NCBI GenBank assembly: GCA_963555755.3
Contig: OY820905.2
Span: 128,001 to 192,000 of the forward strand
Length of the DNA stretch: 64,000 nt
Source: Nitrospirales bacterium
GTDB taxonomy: Bacteria; Nitrospirota; Nitrospiria; Nitrospirales; UBA8639
Direction: 5' to 3'
Position numbers and translations under genes: made by a program. Under the pieces are notes generated by a model, which did no database searches, had not been told where the DNA came from, and was given only the letters and a program-made list of their open reading frames with translations. This document shows positions 2,383 to 61,480 of this stretch, piece by piece; the first letter of the stretch is position 1; each line of letters begins with the position of its first letter.

Positions 2383-2539
2383 GGGTTCGCGCAAGAATAC
2401 CTTCCCCGGTTTGGGCGTCGATCCATCCCGCCTGGCGGCGTTGCTCGTCCTTTCCATACGAGGAGTATGCGCAGTCCTCGCGCCTTGCCAGACAGGTGTC
2501 TCAGCACCCAAACCGGGGAAGGTATTCTTGCGCGAACCC
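2383..2539. mobile_element. MITE family A nested in B
   Basis: 33-bp perfect inverted ends gggttcgcgcaagaataccttccccggtttggg; TTA on both sides; other copies at 37801 and 57042. Confidence 0.85.
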
Positions 2540-3619: not shown

Positions 3620-3782
3620 ATCGATACATGAGGCACGGGTGCAGGGAAGAAGGTGTAACTCCTTCGCGGTCCCGCCGCTGTAACTGGAAACGAACCCCGC
3701 AGATGCCACTGTCAAAGACTTAGTTTTTGATGGGAAGGCGCGGGAAGTAGGTTAGGATCCAGAAGCCAGAAGACCTACCCGA
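3620..3782 (+). ncRNA. Cobalamin riboswitch 1
   Basis: AGGGAA, CCCGCCGCTGTAA, GCCACTG...TGGGAAGGC and AGCCAGAAGACC B12-box motifs upstream of the btuF-like gene; ends approximate. Confidence 0.9.
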
Positions 3783-3809
3783 GCTGAGAATGTTGTTGTC
3801 GCCCATTGG

Positions 3810-6957: not shown

Positions 6958-7140
6958 AACGGTATGTGTCGGGGAAGATGGTGAAAATCCATCACGGTGC
7001 CGCCACTGTAAGCGGGGAGTAACTCTGCAGGAAAGCCACTGGCCATAGATGTTATGCGTGAGAGGTTGTTCTCACCTACGCGCATAGGCTGGGAAGGCGC
7101 AGGGAAGTGATGATCCGCAAGTCAGGAGACCCAACAGCCG
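6958..7140 (+). ncRNA. Cobalamin riboswitch 2
   Basis: GGGGAA-GGTGAAAATCC, GCCGCCACTGTAA, GCCACTG...GGGAAGGC, AGTCAGGAGACC; cccttc/aaaggg hairpin overlaps the GGAGG SD. Confidence 0.9.
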
Positions 7141-12064: not shown

Positions 12065-12184
12065 GGGACCGTTGCAAAAGGCCGCCAGCGGCGTTCTCGG
12101 CCCGTTGTCGTGCTCACGTACATGAGTACGCTCCGTGCGCCAACGGGCCTGCGGCCTTGCTGGACGGTCTTTTTGAACAGCCCC
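12064..12184. repeat. Palindromic repeat family D (ERIC-like core)
   Basis: Long hairpin with cagcggcgttctc...cacgtac/gtacgctccg...gccttgctg; between convergent stops. Confidence 0.85.
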
Positions 12185-12190
12185 ATCCTT

Positions 12191-14045: not shown

Positions 14046-14069
14046 GTTCTGCGCAGAAATACGTTGAAC

Positions 14070-14263
14070 AAATCAGAAATTCAAATATCGAAATCCAAAA
14101 CAAATCCGAAATCCAAAACCCGAATGTCTCAAACGGCTCGACAGGGTGGGCGAATTGGCAAATTCGTTTTTCAGGCTCGTTCTGGCGGTCTTGCGGCGTT
14201 TAAGTCATTTGAAATTTGGTCATTTGAATTTGTTTCGAATTTCGACATTCGTATTTTGAATTT
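14070..14263. repeat. Imperfect palindrome of ~7-bp AAATYC-type units
   Basis: aaattcaaatatcgaaatccaaaacaaatcc on the left mirrored by gaatttgtttcgaatttcgacattcgtattttgaattt on the right. Confidence 0.7.
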
Positions 14264-14305
14264 GATACCCGAGCGGCTCCTTCATCGAACAAGGGTGGTA
14301 CATCT

Positions 14306-14614
14306 ATGGTGTTGCTAGAATTCAGCATGTCTCCGTTAGGGAAAGGCGAAAGTGTGGGGAAGTATGTTTCTCGCTCATTGGAGATTGTCGATCAGAGTGG
14401 GGTGGAGTATCGCCTCAATCCCATGGGAACGGTACTTGAAGGCGAGTGGGATGACGTGATGGATGTGGTTCGCCAATGTTATGAGCGGATGAGAAAAGAT
14501 TGCAATCGGATTTCATGCACGATGAAAGTTGATTTTCGAAAAGGAAAAAACGGTCGATTGAGTGGCAAGGTCGCCAGTGTCGAAAAACGCCTCAAGCGAA
14601 AGCTGAAAACGTAA
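14306..14614 (+). CDS. MTH1187/thiamine-binding family protein
   Basis: EFSMSPLG, Y.LNPMGTVLEGEWD.VM, GKVASVE. Confidence 0.85.
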   Translation: MVLLEFSMSPLGKGESVGKYVSRSLEIVDQSGVEYRLNPMGTVLEGEWDDVMDVVRQCYERMRKDCNRISCTMKVDFRKGKNGRLSGKVASVEKRLKRKLKT

Positions 14615-14712
14615 AACCGTGATGCGTAAAGCGTGAAGCGTAATGCGTAAAAAAGGAAAAAGGAGTCTTCCTTTACGGATCACGCTTCACGCTTCACGCA
14701 TTACGTTTTATG
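14610..14712. repeat. Heptamer-repeat hairpin between convergent genes
   Basis: (CGTRAWG)n followed by (CWTYACG)n; includes both stop codons. Confidence 0.8.
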
Positions 14713-15874: not shown

Positions 15875-15882
15875 AATACCAT

Positions 15883-16025
15883 TGTCACTACTCAGGTCAT
15901 CTCCCTTTTGCCGCAGGCCGGTGTTGCTGTGGTGCTCAAATCCTCACGTAATTTTAAATACACTCCGGTTTTCCGCTCCTCGCGCCTTGTCCTGAGCCAA
16001 AATTGAGGCACCCTGAGTAGGGACA
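15883..16025. mobile_element. MITE E1: TGT...ACA ends, 6-bp duplication TACCAT
   Basis: tgtcactactcagg / cctgagtagggaca; TACCAT at 15877-15882 and 16026-16031. Confidence 0.8.
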
Positions 16026-16032
16026 TACCATT

Positions 16033-16593
16033 TTAAATTTCGAGTATCTCTTCCTCCTTTTTCTTCAATAATTCGTCAACCTTTTTGGTGTCCGCGTCCG
16101 TGACCTTTTGAATCTCGTTCTCACTACGGCGCAAATCATCTTCGGTGATGGTCGAATTTTTTTGGAGTTTTTTGAGCTCCTCATTGCCTTCTCGTCGAAT
16201 GCCACGAATATGAATCTTGGTGTCTTCCCCGTATTTCTTACTGACTTTCACAAGATCTTTTCGCCGTTCTTCGCTCAAGGGCGGGATCGGCAGGCGAAGC
16301 AGTTTTCCGTCATTTGAGGGGGTGATGCCCAGGTCGGAGGTGACAATGGCTTTTTCAATCTCCTTAATAATCGACATGTCCCACGGTTGAATCGTGATCA
16401 TGCGTCCATCCGGCATCGCGAGGTTGCTCACTTGCTTGAGAGGGGTGGGGGTCCCATAGTAGTCCACTTTGATGTGATCCAACATCGAAAGCGACGCTCG
16501 GCCGCCACGAAGACCAGCTAACTCTTTTTTCAGGTGCTCAAGCACCCCGTCCATTTTTGCTCTCACTTTTTCAAGGGATGGTGTATAGGGCAT
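16033..16593 (-). CDS. frr: Ribosome recycling factor
   Basis: LRGGRAS, VDYYG.PTPL.Q, PPLSEERRK; GAGGTG SD before ATG 16593. Confidence 0.95.
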   Translation of the reverse strand: MPYTPSLEKVRAKMDGVLEHLKKELAGLRGGRASLSMLDHIKVDYYGTPTPLKQVSNLAMPDGRMITIQPWDMSIIKEIEKAIVTSDLGITPSNDGKLLRLPIPPLSEERRKDLVKVSKKYGEDTKIHIRGIRREGNEELKKLQKNSTITEDDLRRSENEIQKVTDADTKKVDELLKKKEEEILEI

Positions 16594-16619
16594 GAGCAAT
16601 CACCTCATCATGAAGGTGG

Positions 16620-16908
16620 GAGCCTGTTCAAGATTAGAGAGATCTACTGCGGGTGCGCTGGATTTGGCCAGATCTTCCGATCCTTTTCGGGGAAGGTTGA
16701 AAAAGACCGCCAGCTGCGTTCTCGGGCTTTTGGCGTGCTCACGTACTGCGTGTACGCTCCGTGCGCCCAAAGCCCTGCGGCCTTGCTGGACGGCCTTTTT
16801 CAAACTTCCCCGTTTTCGTTGAATAGTCCCACTCTTCGCCTCAAACGATCGAAACATCTGACTCAAACCAGCACCCCCTCGCGATGATTGCTAATCTTGG
16901 ACAGGCTC
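16620..16908. mobile_element. MITE family C with nested family D (16689-16811)
   Basis: Reverse-oriented copy of 2574-2734 interrupted by ggggaaggttgaaaaag...ctttttcaaacttcccc; abuts the pyrH stop (CTAG 16909-16912). Confidence 0.85.
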
Positions 16909-17634
16909 CTAGGGCGAATTTTGAGTCACGAGGGTGCCGATTTTTTCTCCGTGAACGACACGTTTCAGATTTCCTGACTGTGTGAGGTTGAAGACCAGCA
17001 GGGAAAGCTTATTGTCCATGCATAACGTGATGGCTGTAGAATCCATGACTTGTAAACTTTTATTGAGGATTGTTAAAAACTGGATTTCCTCAAACATTGT
17101 GGCCGAGGGATTGGTGGTAGGATCCGAATCATAAATGCCATTCACCTTTGTGCCTTTTAAAAGAATATCGGCTCCAATTTCCATAGCTCGGAGTGCGGCA
17201 GCCGTATCGGTGGTAAAATACGGGTTTCCGGTCCCGGCGGCAAAGATGACTACACGTTTTTTTTCGAGATGGCGAATGGCCCGTCGTCGAATATAGCCTT
17301 CGGCCAATTGCTTCATTTCGATGGCAGAAAGGACTCGTGTGGGGATGTCAAGTTTTTCCAGTGCGTTTTGAAGAGCTAAGGCATTGAGCATGGTGGCTAA
17401 CATACCCATATAGTCAGCCGATGCGCGTTCCATGCCAGATGCACTGGCGGCAATGCCACGAAAAATGTTACCGCCACCAATGACCAACGCCACCTCGACA
17501 TCCATACGGACGACCTCGCCGATTTCCTGGGCGAGGGTGGTGAGGATCTCGGGATGAATGCCATAGGCTTGTGAGCCTGCCAGCATTTCGCCACTAATTT
17601 TTAACAGGATACGGTGGTACCGAATGGGCGTCAT
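16909..17634 (-). CDS. pyrH: Uridylate kinase
   Basis: [25 protein letters not shown]. Confidence 0.97.
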
Positions 17635-18227
17635 TCCTGACCTAGTTGATACCGAGTAAATCTGGCGATGGAGATATTTTCTCCCAGTTTCGCGATCTTG
17701 CCCGTTAGGATTTCTTTAATGGTGATGTTGGGATCCTTGATGAAGCTTTGCTCAAGTAAGCAATTGACTTCATAAAATTTTTCCATTTTACCCTGGACGA
17801 TTTTTTCCCAGGCTGCCTCGGGTTTTCCCATTTCTTTTGCCTGGCCGAGATACACGGCTTTTTCCCGCTCGATTTTATCAGCCGGGACATCCTCACGTTG
17901 GATATAGGTAGGATTCGTTGCGGCGACCTGTAACGCTACTTCTTTGATGAGGGCTTGAAATTCATCAGTCCGCGCTACAAAGTCGGTTTCACAATTAATT
18001 TCAACCAAGACACCAATTTTGCTTCCGGCATGAATGTAGGACGAGATCAAGCCTTCCTTGGTTTCGCGTCCGGCTTTTTTTTGTGCAGCGGCTAGGCCTT
18101 TTTGGCGAAGGAGGTCAATGGCTTTTTCAATATCGAGATTGGTCTCTTTGAGCGCATTCTGGCAGTCGAGAATCCCGGCTCCTGTTTTGGCTCGAAGTTC
18201 CTTCACCGAGACACTCATACTGGACAT
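17631..18227 (-). CDS. tsf: Elongation factor Ts (short form)
   Basis: VKELR..TGAG..DC, NCETDFV. Confidence 0.97.
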
Positions 18228-18302
18228 ATCTTACGTTCTCCCTTTGTCGTGTGGTGCAAACAATTTGGTGTGGTAAAAAATTAAATTTCAGGCCATGTAG
18301 GG

Positions 18303-19088
18303 TTAGGCAGGAGTCTGTATTCCACCTGAGCTGCTCTCAGAGGTACGAGCAGAGATCATGTCTGCCATGATACTGTCTTCTTCTTGGGCAACTGGAGCGT
18401 CCTGTTTGTCAATCATGGCTTGACCCTCAATGCAGGCATTAGCGATCTGAGCGGTAAAGAGCTTTAGAGAACGAATGGCATCATCATTGCCGGGAATGGG
18501 AAAGTCGATGCCTTCAGGATCACAATTGGTATCGACAATGGCCACCACCGGTATTCCAAGGCGATTGGCTTCTTTGACCGTGATGTGTTGAATTCTGGTG
18601 TCGAGGATAAATACGCAACCAGGAAGGTTTTCCATGTGTTTGATTCCGTTGAAATATTTTTCCAACTTTCCTCGTTCTTTTTCCATCAAAAGAATTTCTT
18701 TTTTCTTAAGCCGGTCGTACGTGCCATCCGTCTGAGCGGCTTCCAACTTTTTCAGCTGTATGATGCTTTTTCGGATCGTTTGGAAGTTTGTGAGCATCCC
18801 GCCCAACCAGCGTTGCGTGACATAAAACATATTGCACCGCGTGGCTTCTTCCTCGACAATGTTTACGGCTTGACGTTTGGTTCCGACGAAGAGAACGGTT
18901 TCTCCCGCAGCAACGGTATCGCGAACAAAATTGTAAGCGCGGTGAAAAAGTTGAGCCGATTGCTTGAGGTCAATAATGTAAATGCCATTTTTCTCACCAA
19001 AAATATACGGTCTCATTTTGGGGTTCCACCGGTTGGTTTGATGCCCAAAGTGAACGCCCGCTTCTAATAGGTCTTTGATGGTCACCAT
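18303..19088 (-). CDS. rpsB: 30S ribosomal protein S2
   Basis: [28 protein letters not shown]. Confidence 0.98.
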
Positions 19089-19519
19089 ACGAACTTATTC
19101 GCCCCCTTCCATGACGTCATGTAATTCATTGAGAGCTTACCTGGCCAGTTTTCAACACGACTAGATTCTTGGCCTACCGAGCTCTGCATACATGACATTG
19201 GTCTAGTTGTTGTAAAAGAATATGTTGCTGCCTAAACCTTAAAAATTTAGCATAAGGGCTGTTTTTAATGCAAGCAAAAGTGTTGATTTTTTTGTTTTCT
19301 GTTGTGTGCCGAAGGATGAGTGATGGTTCGGCGTATGTCTTCCAGAGTCCTGACCACCTGAAATTCACGTTTTTGACTTCGAAAAATTATTACAGGTAAA
19401 GTCACAGTGGTATGAATCAAACAGATGAGAGTGGTTCAGGGTGGTGTAGTGACGATTTGATCTTGATGGGACCGTTGAAGAATAGAAATTTTTTATACCG
19501 CCATTCACATGTGACTCAT

Positions 19520-19660
19520 GGGCACCTCTAAAAACCCGGCATTTTTTGTGAGGGCAAGGAAGCCGCGCGCGGAAAACCGGAGTGTATGGGCGAATACATG
19601 AGGATTTGAGCACGCGGCTGACGCCGCCATCACGGAAAAGGACGGTTTTTAGAGGTGCCC
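19520..19660. mobile_element. MITE E2: GGGCACCTCTAAAAAC ends, 4-bp duplication TCAT
   Basis: Inverted ends; TCAT at 19516-19519 and 19661-19664; core shared with E1. Confidence 0.85.
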
Positions 19661-19688: not shown

Positions 19689-19810
19689 GGGGAGGTTCAA
19701 AAAGGTGTGCTCAGCAAGGCCGCAGGCCCTTTGACGCGCGGGGCGTACTCATAGTACGCGAGCACGACAAAGGGCCGGGAATGAAGCTGACGCCCTTTTT
19801 CAACATTCCC
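19689..19810. repeat. Family D repeat, reverse orientation
   Basis: Reverse complement matches the 12064 and 39596 copies; ends 26 bp before the ProA-like start. Confidence 0.85.
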
Positions 19811-37800: not shown

Positions 37801-37979
37801 GGGTTCGCGCAACAATAACTTCCTATGTTTGGGTGTTGAGGCGCCTATCTGGCAAGGCGCGAGGACTGCGCATACTCCTCGTATGGAAAGGACGAGCAAC
37901 GCCGCCAAACGGGATGGATCGACGCCCAAACATAGCCCAAACATAGCCCAAACATAGGATATTATTGTTGCGCGTACCC
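37801..37979. mobile_element. MITE family A (reverse) with internal 3x GCCCAAACATA expansion
   Basis: Core near-identical to 2383-2539; 11-bp tandem repeat at ~37924-37956. Confidence 0.85.
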
Positions 37980-38015
37980 TACAAGGAGGAAATCACCTCT
38001 ATCCCTTAATACACA

Positions 38016-38106
38016 GGTGACAACGGCAAACTACTTGAGAGGGTAGGGCGCAAAGCCAAGAGACCTGAGTGTGGATGATAGCCATCCAAGGGTTCGTCTG
38101 GTTACC
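38016..38106 (+). ncRNA. c-di-GMP-I (GEMM) riboswitch
   Basis: P1 GGTGAC/GTTACC; GGCAAAC-stem-GAGA-stem-GGCGCAAAGCC. Confidence 0.85.
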
Positions 38107-38139
38107 GAACTGGAACTGTCTCAATTTGGTTTTGCAGTG

Positions 38140-39040: not shown

Positions 39041-39254
39041 GGGAATGTTGAAAAAAGCCGCCAGGGGCGTTCTCGCCCTTTTGTCGTGCTCACGTACTAT
39101 GAGTACGCTCCGCGCGTCAAAAGGGCTGCGGCCTTGCTGGATAGACCCTTCGGAAAGACTCAGGGCATGCTTTTTTGAACATTCCCTCCCACTGATGCAA
39201 GCAGGCTTACCTGGAGCATCTATGGGTCATGAACCTGAAATATTCAACAGACCC
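39041..39254. repeat. Family D, long form, directly after the sigma TAA
   Basis: Core 39041-39186 with a small insert; tail ends ttcaacagaccc. Confidence 0.8.
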
Positions 39255-39589: not shown

Positions 39590-39595
39590 CTCCCA

Positions 39596-39793
39596 GGAAT
39601 GTTGAAAAAGGTCGTCAGCGGCGTTCTCGGCTCTTTGTCGTGCTCACGTACTCACCCGTACGCTCCGCGCGCCAAAGCGCCTGCGGCCTTGCTGAGCGCA
39701 CCTTTTTGAACATCCCCTACGGCTCGTGGAGGTTTATGAGATAAATCACATGCGGACGGCATAAGGGAAATTTTTCAATTATTTAACAGGCCC
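39596..39793. repeat. Family D, long form
   Basis: Core 39596-39717; tail ends tttaacaggccc. Confidence 0.8.
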
Positions 39794-40603: not shown

Positions 40604-40841
40604 CCGTGTTGGTTAAGGCTTTGAGGTGCCCGAACCTTTTGTTTTCACGCAAGATTTCCCAATTTACCATCTTGATGATGGAAGGGACTCGTATCCAAGG
40701 CCAGACTCAAAAATGGAAAATTTTCTGACAGGAAGGGGCAGGATCTGACAGGCAATCCTTTGATTCTTTCAAAAAAATCAAAGACTTTTGATGTAAAACG
40801 GTGGTTGATAAAACTCTCGACACCTCTTAAAGAAGGTTGAA

Positions 40842-41004
40842 CCTAGAAACGGCAGTTGGGCGCAAAAAAGACGTGCAAGATATTGGTGTGCATGGTGAAA
40901 TACAAAAAGTCGTGGTCACCTCGGTGGTGATGAGACATTTTTGTATTTTGCCAGGTGCGCCAAGAGCTTGCGCGGACTTTTGTGATCCAACTGCCGATTC
41001 TAGG
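40842..41004. mobile_element. MITE family B, uninterrupted copy
   Basis: CCTAGA ends; TTGAA at 40837-40841 and 41005-41009. Confidence 0.85.
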
Positions 41005-41139
41005 TTGAAGGGTCTGTCCGAGTCTACATAAAAATCTTGGAGAAGTTTGGCTGGGTTTGGTGTACTTTCTTGTAATTGCGAGATGGTAATCTAGTGTAAA
41101 ATATCCTGACATGTTGCATCGCTCACGGAAGGAGGACCG

Positions 41140-46568: not shown

Positions 46569-48541
46569 GTAGAGTAGAGCACTGGTGCTCATCCTGGAGC
46601 TGCTCTCGAACGTTTCGGCGCACGCGCCTACTCCGGGCCAGAGCAGTCAGAAATAACCAGCGCTCCCTCATCAAACCGTGCATGCGGTTTTCTCGCACAC
46701 GGCTTTCCGATGTTCTTCAGGCCAAGGCATGCGCCGAGCGCCAGCCCGGTCCCACAGGAACCTTGTACAGCCCGTAACGCCCGTAAAGATCAGCATGCGG
46801 GAAGCGGCCTAGGCCGCTTCGTCGATCCTTCACCTTATGGCGTTTCATCAAGTGAGTTCGCAGCCGGGCTTCCGCATGGTTTCTGACCTTGTTCATCGCC
46901 AGACTTGAGTTACGATAGTGGAAATAGTTCGCCCACCCTTTCAGGCTGCGATTGACCGTTCCCACGATAGCACTCAAGGGAATGGCAGTCAGTTCCCGTT
47001 GTGTTAGTGCCGTCAGCCTCGCCTTGATTTTCTTCAGCGATGGCTCCGACGGACGAACATTCGGGTACGGTTTCCCAGAACGTCCCCCTCGACTCAGCTG
47101 AATCGTAAAACCCAGGAAGTCGAAGCTCGCTTGGGTGGCGTCCACGATAGTCGTCTTGGTCTCGTTGAGCGTGAGGCCCAATCGTGCCAGTACGGCTCGC
47201 ACCACCTTCAGCGGTTCCACGACATCTTTTCGGCACAGCACGACAAAGTCGTCTGCGTAGCGCACGAGGTGCGCTTGCAGCTTGTCTTTGAGGTGCCGCC
47301 GTTGCCATAGCCGATCCAACTGGTGTAGGTAGCAGTTGGCCAATAGCGGTGAGAGCACCCCGCCTTGCGGCGTGCCTTTGCTGTTGGCATTCCCGCCACC
47401 CACACCCCGCTTCACGCCGTTGTCGTCTTCACCAATGACCGGGGCTTTGAGCCACAGCTTGATGAGGTGCAAGATGCCACCGTCAACAATGCGCTCAGCG
47501 ACCATGGCCAGCAGCTTGGCATGCGGGATACTGTCGAAGTAGTTCGACAGGTCGGCGTCTATGACGTGGGTGTAGCCTGCCCAGAGCGTATGGGCAATGT
47601 CGTTCACCGCATCATGGGCCGATCGCTTGGGCCGGAATCCGTACGAATTCGCACAGAAGTCGGCTTCAAAGATCGGCTCGATGATGAGCTTGACTGCCAT
47701 TTGCGCCACTCGGTCTCGGATCGTCGGGATCCCTAGCGGACGCAGACTGCCGTCCGCTTTGCGTATCATGACGCGCCGCACCGGTTGGGCTCGGTAGGTC
47801 TTGGCTTTCAGATCACGGGCCAATTCCCGCAGAAACGTGTCTACCCCGATTCCACTCTCTATGGCCTTGAAGCTGATCCCATCACTACCGGGGCTGCCTC
47901 GATTGGCTCGGACAAGCCGCCAGGCATGATTGAGGATATCCTCCTGGCTGATCTTGTCGTAGAGTGCGTAAAAGCGATAGGCCGGTTCTTGCTTGGCCTT
48001 GGCATACAGCTTCCTCTGCAGCGTCCTGATCGTCTCCGGGGTGGTTAGCGCCATGGCAATCCCCTGATCCTCCGCTCTTCGGTTGCATGAACAAAGCAGG
48101 GTTCCTTCCCTCGACCGGGGTTGTGTTGTCCCTCGGCCTCAAGCGGTACTATGAACCCCTCCGACTCCCGTTCCGGGCCGCTGTGATTTCGTGGCCTTAT
48201 ACACATTGGTCGGTGTCCTCCCCACCCCCAAAACGGGTCTCCAGCACTGGGCTATACGTCTTCCAGAACATGCCGTCCTTGCTACCCCGGGAGTCGATGG
48301 GTGTCACTTCCGTTATTCCAGCACCCTTCCAGCGGCCTTCCCCTTCTGACCACAGGGTCGGCGTCTCCACTTTGTTTACGAGGCTACTCATAGGTTCACT
48401 TGCGTTACGGCCTGCTCTTTTGCTGTGTGGAAACTTACGACCCCGCGTTACCACGACGCCGCTTCCTCATGCTACCAAGGTGTACGGACAATTCCTTGGA
48501 CGGGACTTTAACCCGCTAGACATACTGCTGTTACTGCGAAC
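46569..48541 (-). mobile_element. Complete group II intron (IIB-like)
   Basis: 5' GTTCG at 48541; DV AAGCCGTGTGCG...CGCATGCACGGTTT (~46673-46705); 3' CTCTAC at 46569; ligated exons recreate the adjacent 20-bp repeat. Confidence 0.92.
46717..48054 (-). CDS. ltrA: Group II intron RT/maturase without an endonuclease domain
   Basis: RPLGIPT.RDR, GTPQGG..SP, RYADD, GW..YF. Confidence 0.95.
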   Translation of the reverse strand: MALTTPETIRTLQRKLYAKAKQEPAYRFYALYDKISQEDILNHAWRLVRANRGSPGSDGISFKAIESGIGVDTFLRELARDLKAKTYRAQPVRRVMIRKADGSLRPLGIPTIRDRVAQMAVKLIIEPIFEADFCANSYGFRPKRSAHDAVNDIAHTLWAGYTHVIDADLSNYFDSIPHAKLLAMVAERIVDGGILHLIKLWLKAPVIGEDDNGVKRGVGGGNANSKGTPQGGVLSPLLANCYLHQLDRLWQRRHLKDKLQAHLVRYADDFVVLCRKDVVEPLKVVRAVLARLGLTLNETKTTIVDATQASFDFLGFTIQLSRGGRSGKPYPNVRPSEPSLKKIKARLTALTQRELTAIPLSAIVGTVNRSLKGWANYFHYRNSSLAMNKVRNHAEARLRTHLMKRHKVKDRRSGLGRFPHADLYGRYGLYKVPVGPGWRSAHALA

Positions 48542-56199: not shown

Positions 56200-57042
56200 A
56201 TGGCCTCGACCGATGATTTGGCCCAACCTGCCTGCCCTCACCGATTTGTCGGCATCGTATGTTGGGGGCTCTTCCTCGTGATGTTGTCTAGCTGTACCAC
56301 TGTTCCGGTCCCTCAAACTTCCCCAGTTTCCTCGGAGACATCTGCAAAGATCATTGAAACATTGCAAGCGCGAGAGGCGAATGTGGTCAGCCTCAAAGGC
56401 CTCTTTGAAGCAGAGCTTGATGGGAAGGGCATGGCTTTTGCGCCCTCTCTTCAGGGCACGATTCTCTACCAACGTCCGGATCAATTTCGTATCAAAGGCT
56501 TTACCCGGTTTGGGGGGTTGGTGTTTGATTTTGTCCTGTCTCATGGTTTGTATGCGCTTCGCGTGAAGAATCAGCCAAGGCCAATTGTTGGCGGAAGTGA
56601 TGATTTTCAGAGGTTGGGAGAATTGCGTCTGCCTGTGCTTTTGAGTTTGCGAGCGATCGAGGTTCTATTAGGAAAATTGCCATTGGTCGCTGAAAATTCT
56701 CTCGCGGTGCAGCAGGGGGATGAGACGTATCAATTTGATATTCCATCCGATTCAAGGACGAATCCGTCAACCCTTTCCCAACGCATTGTGATCGATCAGC
56801 GTTCCTTGCATGTTCGACAATTGGATTATGTGAATTCCGAAGGAGAGTCTGTCGTGTCCATTCGTACATCGGATTTCCGCCTTGTTCGTGATGGATCACA
56901 GGTTGAGTCCGGTACCATTCTGTTGCCATTTGGTGTCCAAGCCGAAGATCATGTGGAAGCCGGAAGTGTGGTGTTGGAATTTATGGAAATCATTGTCAAT
57001 GAACCTCTCGATAAACAGGTGTTTACCCTCGCGGCTTTTTAG
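56200..57042 (+). CDS. Lipoprotein, possibly LolA/LolB-like fold
   Basis: Lipobox LSSC; beta-rich body. Confidence 0.7.
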   Translation: MASTDDLAQPACPHRFVGIVCWGLFLVMLSSCTTVPVPQTSPVSSETSAKIIETLQAREANVVSLKGLFEAELDGKGMAFAPSLQGTILYQRPDQFRIKGFTRFGGLVFDFVLSHGLYALRVKNQPRPIVGGSDDFQRLGELRLPVLLSLRAIEVLLGKLPLVAENSLAVQQGDETYQFDIPSDSRTNPSTLSQRIVIDQRSLHVRQLDYVNSEGESVVSIRTSDFRLVRDGSQVESGTILLPFGVQAEDHVEAGSVVLEFMEIIVNEPLDKQVFTLAAF

Positions 57043-57199
57043 GGCTCGCACAAGAATAACTTCCCCTGTTTGGGCGTCGATCCATCCCGTCTGGCGGCGT
57101 TGCTCGTCCTTTCCCTACCGAGGAGTATGCGCAGTCCTCGCGCCTTGCCAGACAGGTGTTTCAGCACCCAAACAGGGGAGTTTATTCTTGTGCGAACCC
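57042..57199. mobile_element. MITE family A inserted at a stop codon
   Basis: TTA at 57039-57041 and 57200-57202. Confidence 0.85.
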
Positions 57200-57233: not shown

Positions 57234-57923
57234 ATGAAAATTCTGGCTGTTGAAACGGCGACACGTTGTCACAGTGTGGCCATTGTTGATGATCATCAGG
57301 TGCTGGCCGAAGAAACGGATCCCGATTGTGCTTCGCATGCGAGTGTCTTGGTTCCCACCATTGATCGTCTTCTGCAATCCCTTGGCCTGGTGGTCAACCA
57401 ACTTGATGGCTTAGCCGTTTCTTTGGGACCGGGATCGTTTACCGGTTTGCGCGTTGGGCTTTCCACAATGATGGGATTTCGTGTTGCCACGCAGCTTCCT
57501 CTAGTGACCGTCCCGACGTTGGAGGGGATGGCGTGGAATATGAGGGGGGAGAATAAACCCGTCTGCCCCATCTTAAAAGCAAGTCGAGGTGATGTGTATT
57601 GGGCCTTATTTCAGTGGAAAGGCGACCAGCTTGAACGCGTGAGCGAGGATCGCCATGGACCATTATTGCAACTTATTGATTCTATTGAAAATGCAACCAT
57701 TCTATTTGGTGAGGGCTGGTTGGCGCACGCTTCTGATTTACATAAATTGCTAGGTGGAAAAGCCATCTCAGGGCCGGATGAGGCCATGCAGCCCTCGGCA
57801 ATTAGTGTGGCATTTTCCAGCTTGTCATCCTTCCGTTCAAGGCAGTATGCTGGGGGGCAACTCTCCCCTCGGTATATTCAACGTGCTGAAGCCGAAGTGC
57901 AATGGGAGGCTAAGGGCCTGTGA
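57234..57923 (+). CDS. tsaB: t6A biosynthesis protein TsaB
   Basis: ILAVETAT, GPGSFTGLRVG, P.Y.R; upstream of rimI. Confidence 0.93.
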   Translation: MKILAVETATRCHSVAIVDDHQVLAEETDPDCASHASVLVPTIDRLLQSLGLVVNQLDGLAVSLGPGSFTGLRVGLSTMMGFRVATQLPLVTVPTLEGMAWNMRGENKPVCPILKASRGDVYWALFQWKGDQLERVSEDRHGPLLQLIDSIENATILFGEGWLAHASDLHKLLGGKAISGPDEAMQPSAISVAFSSLSSFRSRQYAGGQLSPRYIQRAEAEVQWEAKGL

Positions 57924-58093
57924 AAAAATTACTTGGACAACATCGCGCCCAGATTTGGGTCAGATTTGGACGTAACGATTGAGAAAAAACCGAGCCATAG
58001 CATGCCTATGTTGAGGTTTTTTTGATTGAGGCACGTTTAAAGATGGCCCGAAGATGGGATGCGATGTTGTCCAAGTAATTTTTTCACCGGCCC
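57914..58093. mobile_element. MITE family F inserted in the 3' end of tsaB
   Basis: ~33-bp inverted ends; TAA at 57911-57913 and 58094-58096. Confidence 0.85.
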
Positions 58094-58132
58094 TAAAGCC
58101 CGTAAAGCATCTATTTCAAATTCAAACTGATT

Positions 58133-58804: not shown

Positions 58805-58862
58805 TTTTGCAAGTGGTATTGGGATATTCGCTATCATAATTTGATGACCGTATTCTAACCCA

Positions 58863-59041
58863 GGACCTGAGGGAAAATAACTTGGACATCTCGTATCCAA
58901 TCTTCGGGCCATCGTTGAACGGGCCTCAATCGAAACACCCTCAACATAGCTGTGCTATGCCTCGGGTCTTTCTCAATCGTTCCGTCCACATCTGCCCCCA
59001 ATCTTGGCGCGATATGGTCCAAGTTATTTTCTCTCAGGTCC
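58863..59041. mobile_element. MITE family F, reverse orientation
   Basis: ggacctgagggaaaataacttgga / tccaagttattttctctcaggtcc; interior homologous to 57914-58093. Confidence 0.8.
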
Positions 59042-59078
59042 TCACGCCCTCAGGTAGGGCACAGAAGGGAGGATTCGT

Positions 59079-61259: not shown

Positions 61260-61480
61260 GGGAATGTTGAAAAAGGGCGTCAGCGGCGTTCTCGGCCCTT
61301 TATCGTGCTCACGTACTATGAGTACGCTCCGCGCGCCAAAGCGCCTGCGGCCTTGCTGAGCGCACCCCCCGCCTCCGCGAGGGCATGCTTTTTGAACATC
61401 CCCTGTCGCTCTTGTAATTTCCTGAGATGTATCACCTATGAACCGTATTATGAGAATTTCTCTGGTTCTTCAACAGTCCC
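61260..61480. repeat. Family D, long form
   Basis: Core 61260-61403; tail ends ttcaacagtccc. Confidence 0.8.

Follow-up and report, generated by a model that had tools for sequence, protein, structure and literature searches.

The question raised by this locus is whether the structured core shared by two neighbouring MITEs, E1 and E2, is itself the selected unit, as a sequence-only reading proposed, or whether both simply belong to one MITE lineage. The window (the whole stretch of 64,000 nucleotides analysed, from a Nitrospirales bacterium) contains further elements with the same core, grouped here as families A and D (Table 1). Hundreds of small gene-less mobile elements in the source genome contain this strand-specific hairpin.

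Table 1. Elements of the window that contain the core, with their strand (in E1 that of the purine, better-folding strand) and scores from the covariance model R1.
Feature	Position	Strand	Remarks
E1, 141-bp MITE with IS66-type ends (GTCAC...GGGAC)	15884-16024	-	8-bp duplication; resident IS66 ends
E1 core, long class	15914-15994	-	R1 50.2 bits; E1 in training set
E2, 141-bp MITE with IS5-type ends	19520-19660	+	4-bp duplication TCAT
E2 core, long class	19550-19631	+	R1 59.1 bits; in training set
Family A MITE	2383-2539	-	TTA duplication; short-class core 2431-2492, R1 30.4 bits
Family A MITE, approximate bounds	37801-37979	+	short-class core 37848-37909, R1 28.1 bits
Family A MITE	57042-57199	-	short-class core 57090-57152, R1 29.0 bits
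Family D hairpin	12065-12185	-	R1 53.3 bits
Family D hairpin, core flanked by a single IS end in two inverted copies	16690-16810	-	R1 57.4 bits
Family D hairpin adjoining E2	19689-19810	+	R1 41.4 bits at 19710-19791
Family D full unit	39041-39254	-	R1 48.4 bits; in training set
Family D unit, second tail type	39595-39793	-	R1 52.5 bits
Family D unit, mini-hairpin insert and tail	61260-61480	-	R1 55.6 bits

That E1 and E2 have a common core is confirmed by local alignment, with a score of 63 and a best score of 30 among 2000 shuffles. The signature claimed for families A and D is likewise present, since both score with R1 (28-30 bits in A and 41-57 in D; 50 in E1 and 59 in E2). The training set of this model includes E1, E2, the D unit at 39041-39254 and one ERIC-type sequence (L214). 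Core matches in the source genome amount to 631 using per-family profiles, which were adopted because a profile iterated over all matches drifted to family D (619 matches falling to 330). R1 detects the core in many bacterial phyla, in a patchy fashion (20/61, 4/41, and 19/41 genomes); in viral contigs 1/120 matches is structured, and the spacing of the remaining ones is flat. None of the window cores matches an Rfam family at the gathering threshold, whereas three enterobacterial loci match V_AS5 (RF02818) below threshold (33-35 bits vs. 96). A literature search found no published account of the shared core or of its link to ERIC.

The expectation of a conserved structured module is upheld by a covariance model of the core built from 57 sequences, in which covariation is strong and specific to the purine strand. 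Paired cells reach 81.0% against 59.1% in shuffled alignments and 28-39% in slid controls, and double changes number 436 against 160 shuffled. At an apical pair left unconstrained, 74 of the 78 non-redundant sequences have complementary bases (29 expected), G-U outnumbers A-C in the outer stem (24:4 and 13:1), and the purine strand is the lower-folding one in 71/78 sequences as RNA and 69/78 as DNA. The geometry is also restricted: the anchors lie 17-19 nt apart in 106/112 loci, where the collection pattern permitted 15-40, and the outer motifs are spaced 37-40 or 56-61 nt in 40/40 structured matches and 41-55 nt in none (242 genome and metagenome loci). The long and short core classes differ by 21 nt, with outer-motif spacings one helical turn apart. 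Two known folds were discarded. A kink-turn has a 3-nt bulge before tandem G-A, but the covarying pairs allow a bulge of at most 1 nt; a bulge-helix-bulge is incompatible with the same pairs.

The ends of these elements belong to different insertion sequences. E1 had been read as TGT...ACA with a 6-bp duplication and, therefore, as IS481-like; the same letters read GTCAC...GGGAC with an 8-bp duplication (ATACCATT, at 15876-15883 and 16025-16032). IS481 elements have fixed TGT...ACA ends and 6-bp duplications, while IS66 elements start with GTAA and duplicate 8 bp. The ends of E1 are those of 12 resident 2413-bp elements encoding an IS66 transposase, in which the base outside GTAAC varies (A4, T3, C3, G2) and the 8-bp duplication is exact in 11/12; an IS481 origin was consequently rejected. 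Among E1-type copies the 8-bp duplication is exact in 5/11 and has one mismatch in three more. For E2 the reading of IS5-like ends with a 4-bp duplication proved correct: the duplication is exact in 95/119 pairs of E2-type copies, and the partner transposase scores 259 bits with NF033581 (IS5; cut-off 140). Autonomous IS5 elements with E2 ends are found only in other genomes (L035, L042, L072). Junctions skipping 145 bp occur at E2 in 3/3 DNA runs examined. Of 59 loci with closed E2-type ends, only 10 have an R1 match inside the element; ends of this type can therefore exist independently of the core.

The arms of E1 and E2 had been considered unrelated, which is true of the outer ~19 bp at each end but not of the inner arms. 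Alignment of the outer 33-bp arms scores within the range of shuffled sequences (p 0.25-0.92). The inner arms can be aligned weakly, and the two elements form colinear 141-bp hairpins in register, differing only in those outer ~19 bp.

Family A has the 3-bp duplication attributed to it (95/167 pairs, mostly TAA/TTA), and no autonomous IS partner was found for it. Family D is more complex. Its hairpins are formed by two inverted copies of an end found downstream of a transposase gene in L806 (genome G033), whose protein scores 159 bits with IS1182 (cut-off 270) and 128 with IS5_4 (cut-off 140); the D ends may accordingly be termed, tentatively, IS5/IS1182-like. The family usually runs ~70 bp past the hairpin to a second end, and such extended units have an exact 5-bp duplication in 66/118 cases. 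The unit at 39041-39254 is ordered as end, core, mini-hairpin insert, inverted end copy, variable tail, and second end. An IS110 element has been inserted in the mini-hairpin inside D. The hairpin at 16690-16810 is nested in another MITE (16619-16909), and junctions skipping 129 bp occur there in 4/4 DNA runs examined. In genome G033 the D partner also has an ordinary MITE formed by internal deletion (L808), which lacks the core. No core-free D unit was found among 33 tail matches without an upstream core; one candidate, L807, was rejected as a deletion derivative.

These elements have the terminal inverted repeats, target duplications, high multiplicity, empty orthologous sites (for E1, in genome G066, and for E2 and D), and autonomous IS elements with the same ends that are expected of MITEs. 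Terminal repeats, family-typical duplications, empty sites and autonomous partners are likewise features of the prokaryotic MITEs that stem from IS66 and IS5 ends. Unlike those MITEs, however, the elements with the core have an interior that is no deleted piece of the partner IS, and none of the five autonomous partners examined has an R1 match inside. The proposal that one module has been coupled to different IS ends is sustained by IS66, IS5, IS5/IS1182-like, and TTA-type ends here, and by TA-type ends in ERIC and Correia.

The core is homologous to the centre of ERIC, the repeat of enterobacteria, and so the module, which had been considered a candidate for an undescribed system, is not wholly undescribed. 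In E. coli K-12, R1 matches 22 sites; 15 of these differ from the ERIC primers by no more than six mismatches, and the aceF-lpd ERIC site scores 48.6 bits. A second E. coli repeat family with the core is, we assume, RSA. It is important to note that the ERIC link is partly circular, because the first collection pattern was loosened with an eye to known repeat sequences, and the training set of R1 contained L214. Nonetheless, a profile made from the source genome alone matches six E. coli repeats at E values of 1.6e-7 to 1e-5, with two ERIC-type copies at 0.002-0.003 among the 22 loci and none in the reversed control. The central imperfect palindrome of ERIC is found as well, weakly by sequence alone. 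The published consensus, as given in Table 1a of PMC2759123, has the outer motif, a 19-nt spacer, and the apical stem. ERIC differs in its TA ends and duplication and its length of 127 bp (ERIC, IRU or RU-1 is listed as MITEEc1_IS630; PMC11602168), while the window families have duplications of 8, 4, 5 and 3 bp and IS66, IS5, or putative IS5/IS1182-like ends. The middle stems also differ in sequence, and the host of the window lies outside the Gammaproteobacteria.

Two other systems resemble the core in part. The Correia repeats of Neisseria (NEMIS, CREE) have short forms with the outer motif at short spacing, as in family A, that reach 22-26 bits with R1 in 5/12 loci; they differ in having TA ends and no inner tandem G-A motif, and their long forms, which contain an IHF site according to PMC2229807, are unmatched by R1. 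In E. coli K-12 there are 173 occurrences of the outer motif capped by 3 nt (5 in the control), presumably the REP centre. The RU-3 sequence in Table 1b of PMC2759123 is consistent with this identification. The central AAGGCG...ACGCCGC of REP is identical to the outer motif, but the cap is of 3 nt instead of an arm of 38 or 59 nt, and REP lacks terminal repeats and duplications; judging from the motif, REP may possibly be related to the core.

With regard to selection, the claim that the module is the selected unit finds support in the fact that the core is more conserved than the remainder of the unit in which it moves. Among D units that moved whole (57, of which 38 have an exact 5-bp duplication), the mean distance is 0.052 for the core and 0.335 for the tail, a 6.5-fold contrast; the two distances correlate (Mantel r 0.33). 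A comparison of cores with ends in 42 loci gave r 0.29, the end calls being crude and automatic. The core diverges from its consensus by 0.021, nearly the value of the duplications (0.024). Compared with private variants, those found in several copies (at least two in D, at least three in A and E2) are scarcer in motif columns when D, A and E2 are pooled (odds ratio 2.9, p 0.005), the test alone not being significant in A (p 0.09) or E2 (p 0.16). Private changes are also depleted in the D motif columns (0.19 vs. 0.49 per column), in agreement with a degree of selection on inserted copies.

The placement of the copies likely reflects a selfish element. There is no replication-strand bias (163/302, 92/185, 68/141), no enrichment at codon-biased, highly expressed genes in A or E and only a weak one in D, and, as stated above, presence is patchy. 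The cores found inside the rpsB-tsf-pyrH-frr operon in both the source genome and E. coli stay anecdotal because of that lack of enrichment beyond the weak D signal. What speaks against a selfish pattern is that D copies lying between co-oriented genes favour one orientation (120:76, p 0.002). The 100:38 bias of D near gene 3' ends is given no weight, since distances were taken from the core of an asymmetric unit.

Copying from one arm to the other is observed in two families, A and H182, in which private compensated changes number 6 and 5 (0.10 and 0.15 expected). It is absent in E2 (no compensated vs. 25 one-sided changes), J265 and K167. Since H182 has no R1 match, arm copying is not specific to the core. 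Template switching as a corrector of imperfect inverted repeats is described in PMC5941160.

The explanation that we prefer, and to which we give an even chance, is that the core, a strand-specific hairpin of old origin that shares ancestry with the ERIC centre and has exchangeable IS ends, is a selfish module favoured at the copying step. A conserved host protein would read the hairpin, fold-back (template-switch) synthesis would place a copy of a neighbouring IS end on the opposite side of the hairpin, and elements with an intact core would be copied preferentially. The resident transposase of the captured end would then do the cutting and joining, since the duplications (3, 4, 5, and 8 bp) are family-typical. 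The search found neither such a protein nor an intermediate, nor any ancestor without the core for E1, for E2, or for the D unit. A broader version can be advanced only tentatively: a pan-bacterial gene-less "MITE factory" in which one hairpin with two helically phased sites, a universal host protein, and fold-back copying could turn any adjacent IS end into a two-ended element, ERIC, Correia and possibly REP being among its outputs.

The main alternative places the fold in RNA: the purine-strand transcript would form a self-contained hairpin and be handled by host ribonucleases or RNA-binding proteins, and insertions with an intact core would be the least harmful and kept by host selection. 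Cores without evident IS ends are found 1-35 nt before the 5' ends of 23S, 16S, tRNA, and tmRNA, which points to RNA, and outside the source genome the purine strand is the sense strand at all such sites seen (G086, G087, G088, L280-L282, L138, L611, G165). The invariant G-U beside tandem G-A is an RNA-like motif, the depletion of private changes in D agrees with host selection, and effects of RNase E and RNase III on ERIC and Correia transcripts are reported in PMC10969869 and PMC2649163. However, cores between protein genes are unbiased in E. coli (8 sense and 9 antisense of 22), in low-copy Nitrospirota loci (4:4 of 12) and in family A (61:53), and those within 200 nt upstream of source-genome tRNAs (default scan, 47 calls) are 5 sense and 2 antisense. 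Moreover, three of the genomes with stable-RNA sites were picked because their first match adjoined a stable RNA, and a later draw from other genomes gave one array abutting a tRNA among 31 loci. This alternative is unlikely, and action of the fold as single-stranded DNA during replication or transposition is tentatively favoured over action as RNA.

It is still less probable that the core itself is mobile, moved in trans by a REP-type HUH nuclease or a reverse transcriptase, with IS ends acquired later. The 173 capped motifs of E. coli K-12, the armless and tandem core copies and the IS110 insertions in the D mini-hairpin speak for it. IS200/IS605- or REP-type HUH substrates show a replication-orientation bias, a GTAG tag, and no duplication, but the elements have duplications of the DDE type and no strand bias, and in these two traits do not resemble a HUH substrate. 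In addition, no neighbour gene recurs across 15 low-copy loci, and the empty sites lack core and ends together. Passive descent from one ancestral hairpin MITE, with ends changed by nested insertion and loss of the old ends and the core merely tolerated, appears highly unlikely: nesting is common (D inside the 16619-16909 element) and the inner arms of E1 and E2 can still be aligned, yet this reading explains neither why unpaired bases stay invariant from phylum to phylum, nor the rule of one-turn spacing, nor the contrast between core and tail. Convergence or chance likeness of GC-rich palindromes is hardly credible, for despite the circularity of the loosened pattern and of L214, the source-genome-only profile matches the E. 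coli repeats and motif parts outside the pattern are present in 84/117 loci (7% shuffled).

In the more than 30 years that ERIC and Correia have been known, neither where they come from nor why their centres are conserved has, to our knowledge, been explained. Should the centre prove to be a portable module with exchangeable ends, bacterial MITEs would not be merely shrunken IS elements, and the question could be put to a direct test in E. coli K-12. For such a test the preferred model, a selfish hairpin, specifies a strand, invariant bases, a spacing rule of one turn, and three families of transposases whose partners are known.

The 141-bp MITEs E1 and E2 are both present in the sequence, are mutually colinear, and lie in the rpsB-tsf-pyrH-frr-alr region, whose genes were identified by eye from translations. 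The sequence-only reading held that the two share a structured core on unrelated arms. The shared core is borne out (alignment score of 63 vs. a shuffled maximum of 30); the arms are unrelated only in part, as the outer arms align no better than chance but the divergence is limited to about 19 bp at either end. The 4.62-Mb genome of the window (G000) contains 631 core matches after merging, namely 303 in the MITE family D, 185 in family A, 141 of E1/E2 type, and 2 others, and four reversed-genome controls returned zero. The window operon rpsB-tsf...pyrH-frr has four core elements, and Escherichia coli K-12 also carries cores in rpsB-tsf and pyrH-frr.

In the species collection, about 7,900 stretches by estimate match a pattern of the core's left half, which was loosened with known repeat sequences in mind. 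The 122 loci drawn belong, by title, to Pseudomonadota, Bacteroidota, Bacillota, Desulfobacterota, Spirochaetota, Chlorobiota, Myxococcota, Verrucomicrobiota, Acidobacteriota, Actinomycetota, and Nitrospirota. The right half, outside the search pattern, is present in 84 of 117 parsed loci vs. 7% in shuffles. The covariance model R1 was aligned from 57 sequences: three window copies plus the 54 loci remaining after near-duplicates and atypical spacings were dropped. The covariation expected of the core was found, with 81.0% paired cells vs. 59.1% shuffled, 436 double changes vs. 160 shuffled, and slid controls 28-39% paired; independently, RNAalifold predicted 21 pairs, 20 of them also in R1. 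The long stem carries the outer motif, GCAAGGCG opposite CAACGC-A/C-GC with two small bulges. Inward of it come a middle stem that varies, then a tandem G-A adjoining a G-U that is invariant, and finally an apical stem in which two U-A/A-U pairs are invariant; the purine strand is marked out by its G-U wobbles and folding energies. Within the phylum, R1 matches occur in at least 20 of 61 genomes; in the class to which genome G086 belongs the figure is at least 4 of 41, and in that of G087 at least 19 of 41 (18 of 40 without the unpublished G160). All are lower bounds because only some candidates were scored. Head-to-tail tandems of core and arm, repeating every 120-135 bp or so, occur in several phyla (L272, L278, L281, L838, L843, L858/L875).

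The ends associated with this core are diverse. E1 had been read as IS481-like, an identity now rejected because its ends match those of a resident 2413-bp element coding for an IS66 transposase (12 copies in G000, of which 11 are flanked by an exact 8-bp duplication; the base outside GTAAC varies). E1 thus runs from 15884 to 16024 and has an 8-bp duplication. The E1-type copies recovered number eleven, one further candidate being a family A variant, and the E1 site is occupied in genome G065 and empty in G066. For E2, both earlier proposals stood: the 4-bp duplication is seen in 95 of 119 pairs, and the ends are of IS5 type, one E2-ended partner element scanned being an IS5. Three other genomes have 1.2-1.3 kb elements with E2 ends and long transposase-like frames, no autonomous element with E2 ends was found in G000, and the E2 empty site was seen in all three DNA runs. 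Family D units run as end, core, inverted copy of that end, then usually a tail of about 55 nt and a second end; the 5-bp duplication is exact in 66 of 118 units. In genome G033 a transposase gene of IS5/IS1182 type, scoring below both family cut-offs, lies between D-type ends. Family A has TAA/TTA duplications, and a search for its autonomous partner found none. R1 detected no core in the five autonomous elements tested. Since IS66 ends of E1 type also flank an unrelated heptamer-repeat hairpin, and closed E2-type ends enclose a core match at only 10 of 59 loci, ends and interiors mix in both directions. With about an even chance of being right, we propose a selfish hairpin that would be read by a host factor, gain ends through fold-back copying, and then be mobilized with these acquired ends by the matching transposase.

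Several further features accompany these elements (table below). In addition to the heptamer-repeat hairpins, two solo ends lie upstream of an open frame that resembles four-helix-bundle proteins. The resident IS66 has a second frame of 295 aa, matching Pfam DruA, upstream of its transposase. Seven D units of 1.36-1.51 kb (one fully sequence-inspected) keep exact 5-bp duplications, which suggests that IS110 may repeatedly target the D mini-hairpin. Opposite the variable D tail, -35-box-like and -10-like positions 17 nt apart are kept (judged by eye) and could drive purine-strand RNA. Two Pseudomonas cores (L138 and L196) are 95% alike and differ in ends and duplications (4-bp CTAG vs. 3-bp type). 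The MITE families H182, F165, and K167 gave no clear R1 match; their apical stems have a loosely similar grammar, and they nest in one another at fixed sites.

Coordinates of core copies and accompanying features
Feature	Position	Remarks
E. coli K-12 core copies in rpsB-tsf / pyrH-frr	190634-190718 and 192669-192741	L255, L259, L304
Group II intron domains (Rfam)	window 46569-48509	
Two cobalamin riboswitches (Rfam)	window 3620-3796, 6971-7132	
c-di-GMP-I riboswitch (Rfam)	window 38015-38109	
Heptamer-repeat hairpins	G000:C1:29423-29558 and similar; window 14064-14318, 14614-14709	some within IS66 ends, 8-bp duplications
Resident IS66	G000:C1:424041-426453	L001
IS110-family element, 324 aa	G000:C1:342894-344315	L002; inserted at AG step of mini-hairpin inside family D
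IS110 target type in D mini-hairpin	window 39144-39172	
Variable D tail	window 39187-39254	
263-bp family	G000:C1:929708-929972	L289; 37 copies, two oppositely oriented short-class cores, TTA-type ends
H182, F165, K167 copies	window 57913-58094, 58861-59042, 16619-16909, 2575-2735, 40837-41010	

Tolerance at the RNA level, which we hold to be unlikely though worth weighing, finds its best support in placement within stable-RNA leaders. In three genomes chosen for this very placement, rRNA operons or tRNA clusters hold seven of nine matches, five of them immediately 5' of 23S (G086); both loci scanned lie upstream of tRNA genes (G087); and matches precede 16S and two tRNAs (G088). Elsewhere in the phylum, four cores lie upstream of tRNA or tmRNA, and 31 later loci from other genomes included one array adjoining a tRNA. 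At such sites the purine strand is the sense strand in every case outside G000, while G000 is split 5 sense to 2. A core mobile by itself, independently, seems rather improbable.

Selection was examined in D units of equal length, 57 of the 70 whose tail is 74 nt; 38 of the 57 have exact duplications. Differences amount to 0.052 in the core vs. 0.335 in the tail, and the contrast holds in 36 nearest-neighbour pairs with close tails (0.017 vs. 0.048). Core divergence from consensus (0.021) is close to duplication decay (0.024), and shared variants are more strongly depleted in motif columns than private ones (pooled odds ratio 2.9, p 0.005; not significant in families A and E2 singly), which favours a filter acting at the copying step, although the motif columns of D hold few private changes as well. 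Passive nested descent, with the core simply carried along, is improbable beside the proposed selfish hairpin. Families A and H182 show arm-to-arm copying, with 11 compensated private changes vs. 0.25 expected; E2, J265, and K167 do not. Core elements have no replication-strand bias; an orientation bias between co-oriented genes is confined to D and is absent in E. coli and low-copy loci.

The spacing of the core is also constrained. Scans for two outer half-motifs 31-61 nt apart, with a length-independent filter for apical stem and closing pairs, passed 23 loci out of 120 from metagenomes and 17 out of 122 from genomes, and the spacing was 37-40 or 56-61 nt in all 40. Since the 21-nt gap between classes equals 10.5 bp of stem, i.e., one helical turn, it suggests that a reader would contact outer motif and hairpin tip on the same face.

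In E. coli K-12, 15 of the 22 R1 sites lie within 6 mismatches of a published ERIC primer (8-12 mismatches in controls), and of the remaining seven, six make up a second family, presumably RSA, with an inner core near that of E1. As a circularity control, a profile from G000 copies only was run on these 22 loci; it found the six second-family loci with E-values no higher than 1e-5 and gave weak matches to two ERIC-type copies. It failed to detect most ERICs, so the ERIC link rests mainly on the structure-aware model. The ERIC consensus given in PMC2759123 has the same anchors and spacing as the core. Convergence is very improbable indeed. Like family A (28-30 bits), Correia short forms match R1, with 22-26 bits at 5 of 12 loci (135 collected). 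K-12 has 173 occurrences of the outer motif capped with 3 nt (5 in the control), in what we take to be the REP centre; homology of REP to the core would be a lead only.

No ERIC-type core on unrelated IS ends is described in the accessible portions of the literature compared, mainly freely accessible and with the original ERIC and Correia studies represented by reviews (PMC10969869, PMC3184786, PMC11602168, PMC2759123 Tables 1a and 1b, PMC2267715, PMC3733652, PMC2649163, PMC4172985, PMC2229807, PMC5941160). The core is real and ERIC-related, and it is far more widespread and modular than those portions describe.
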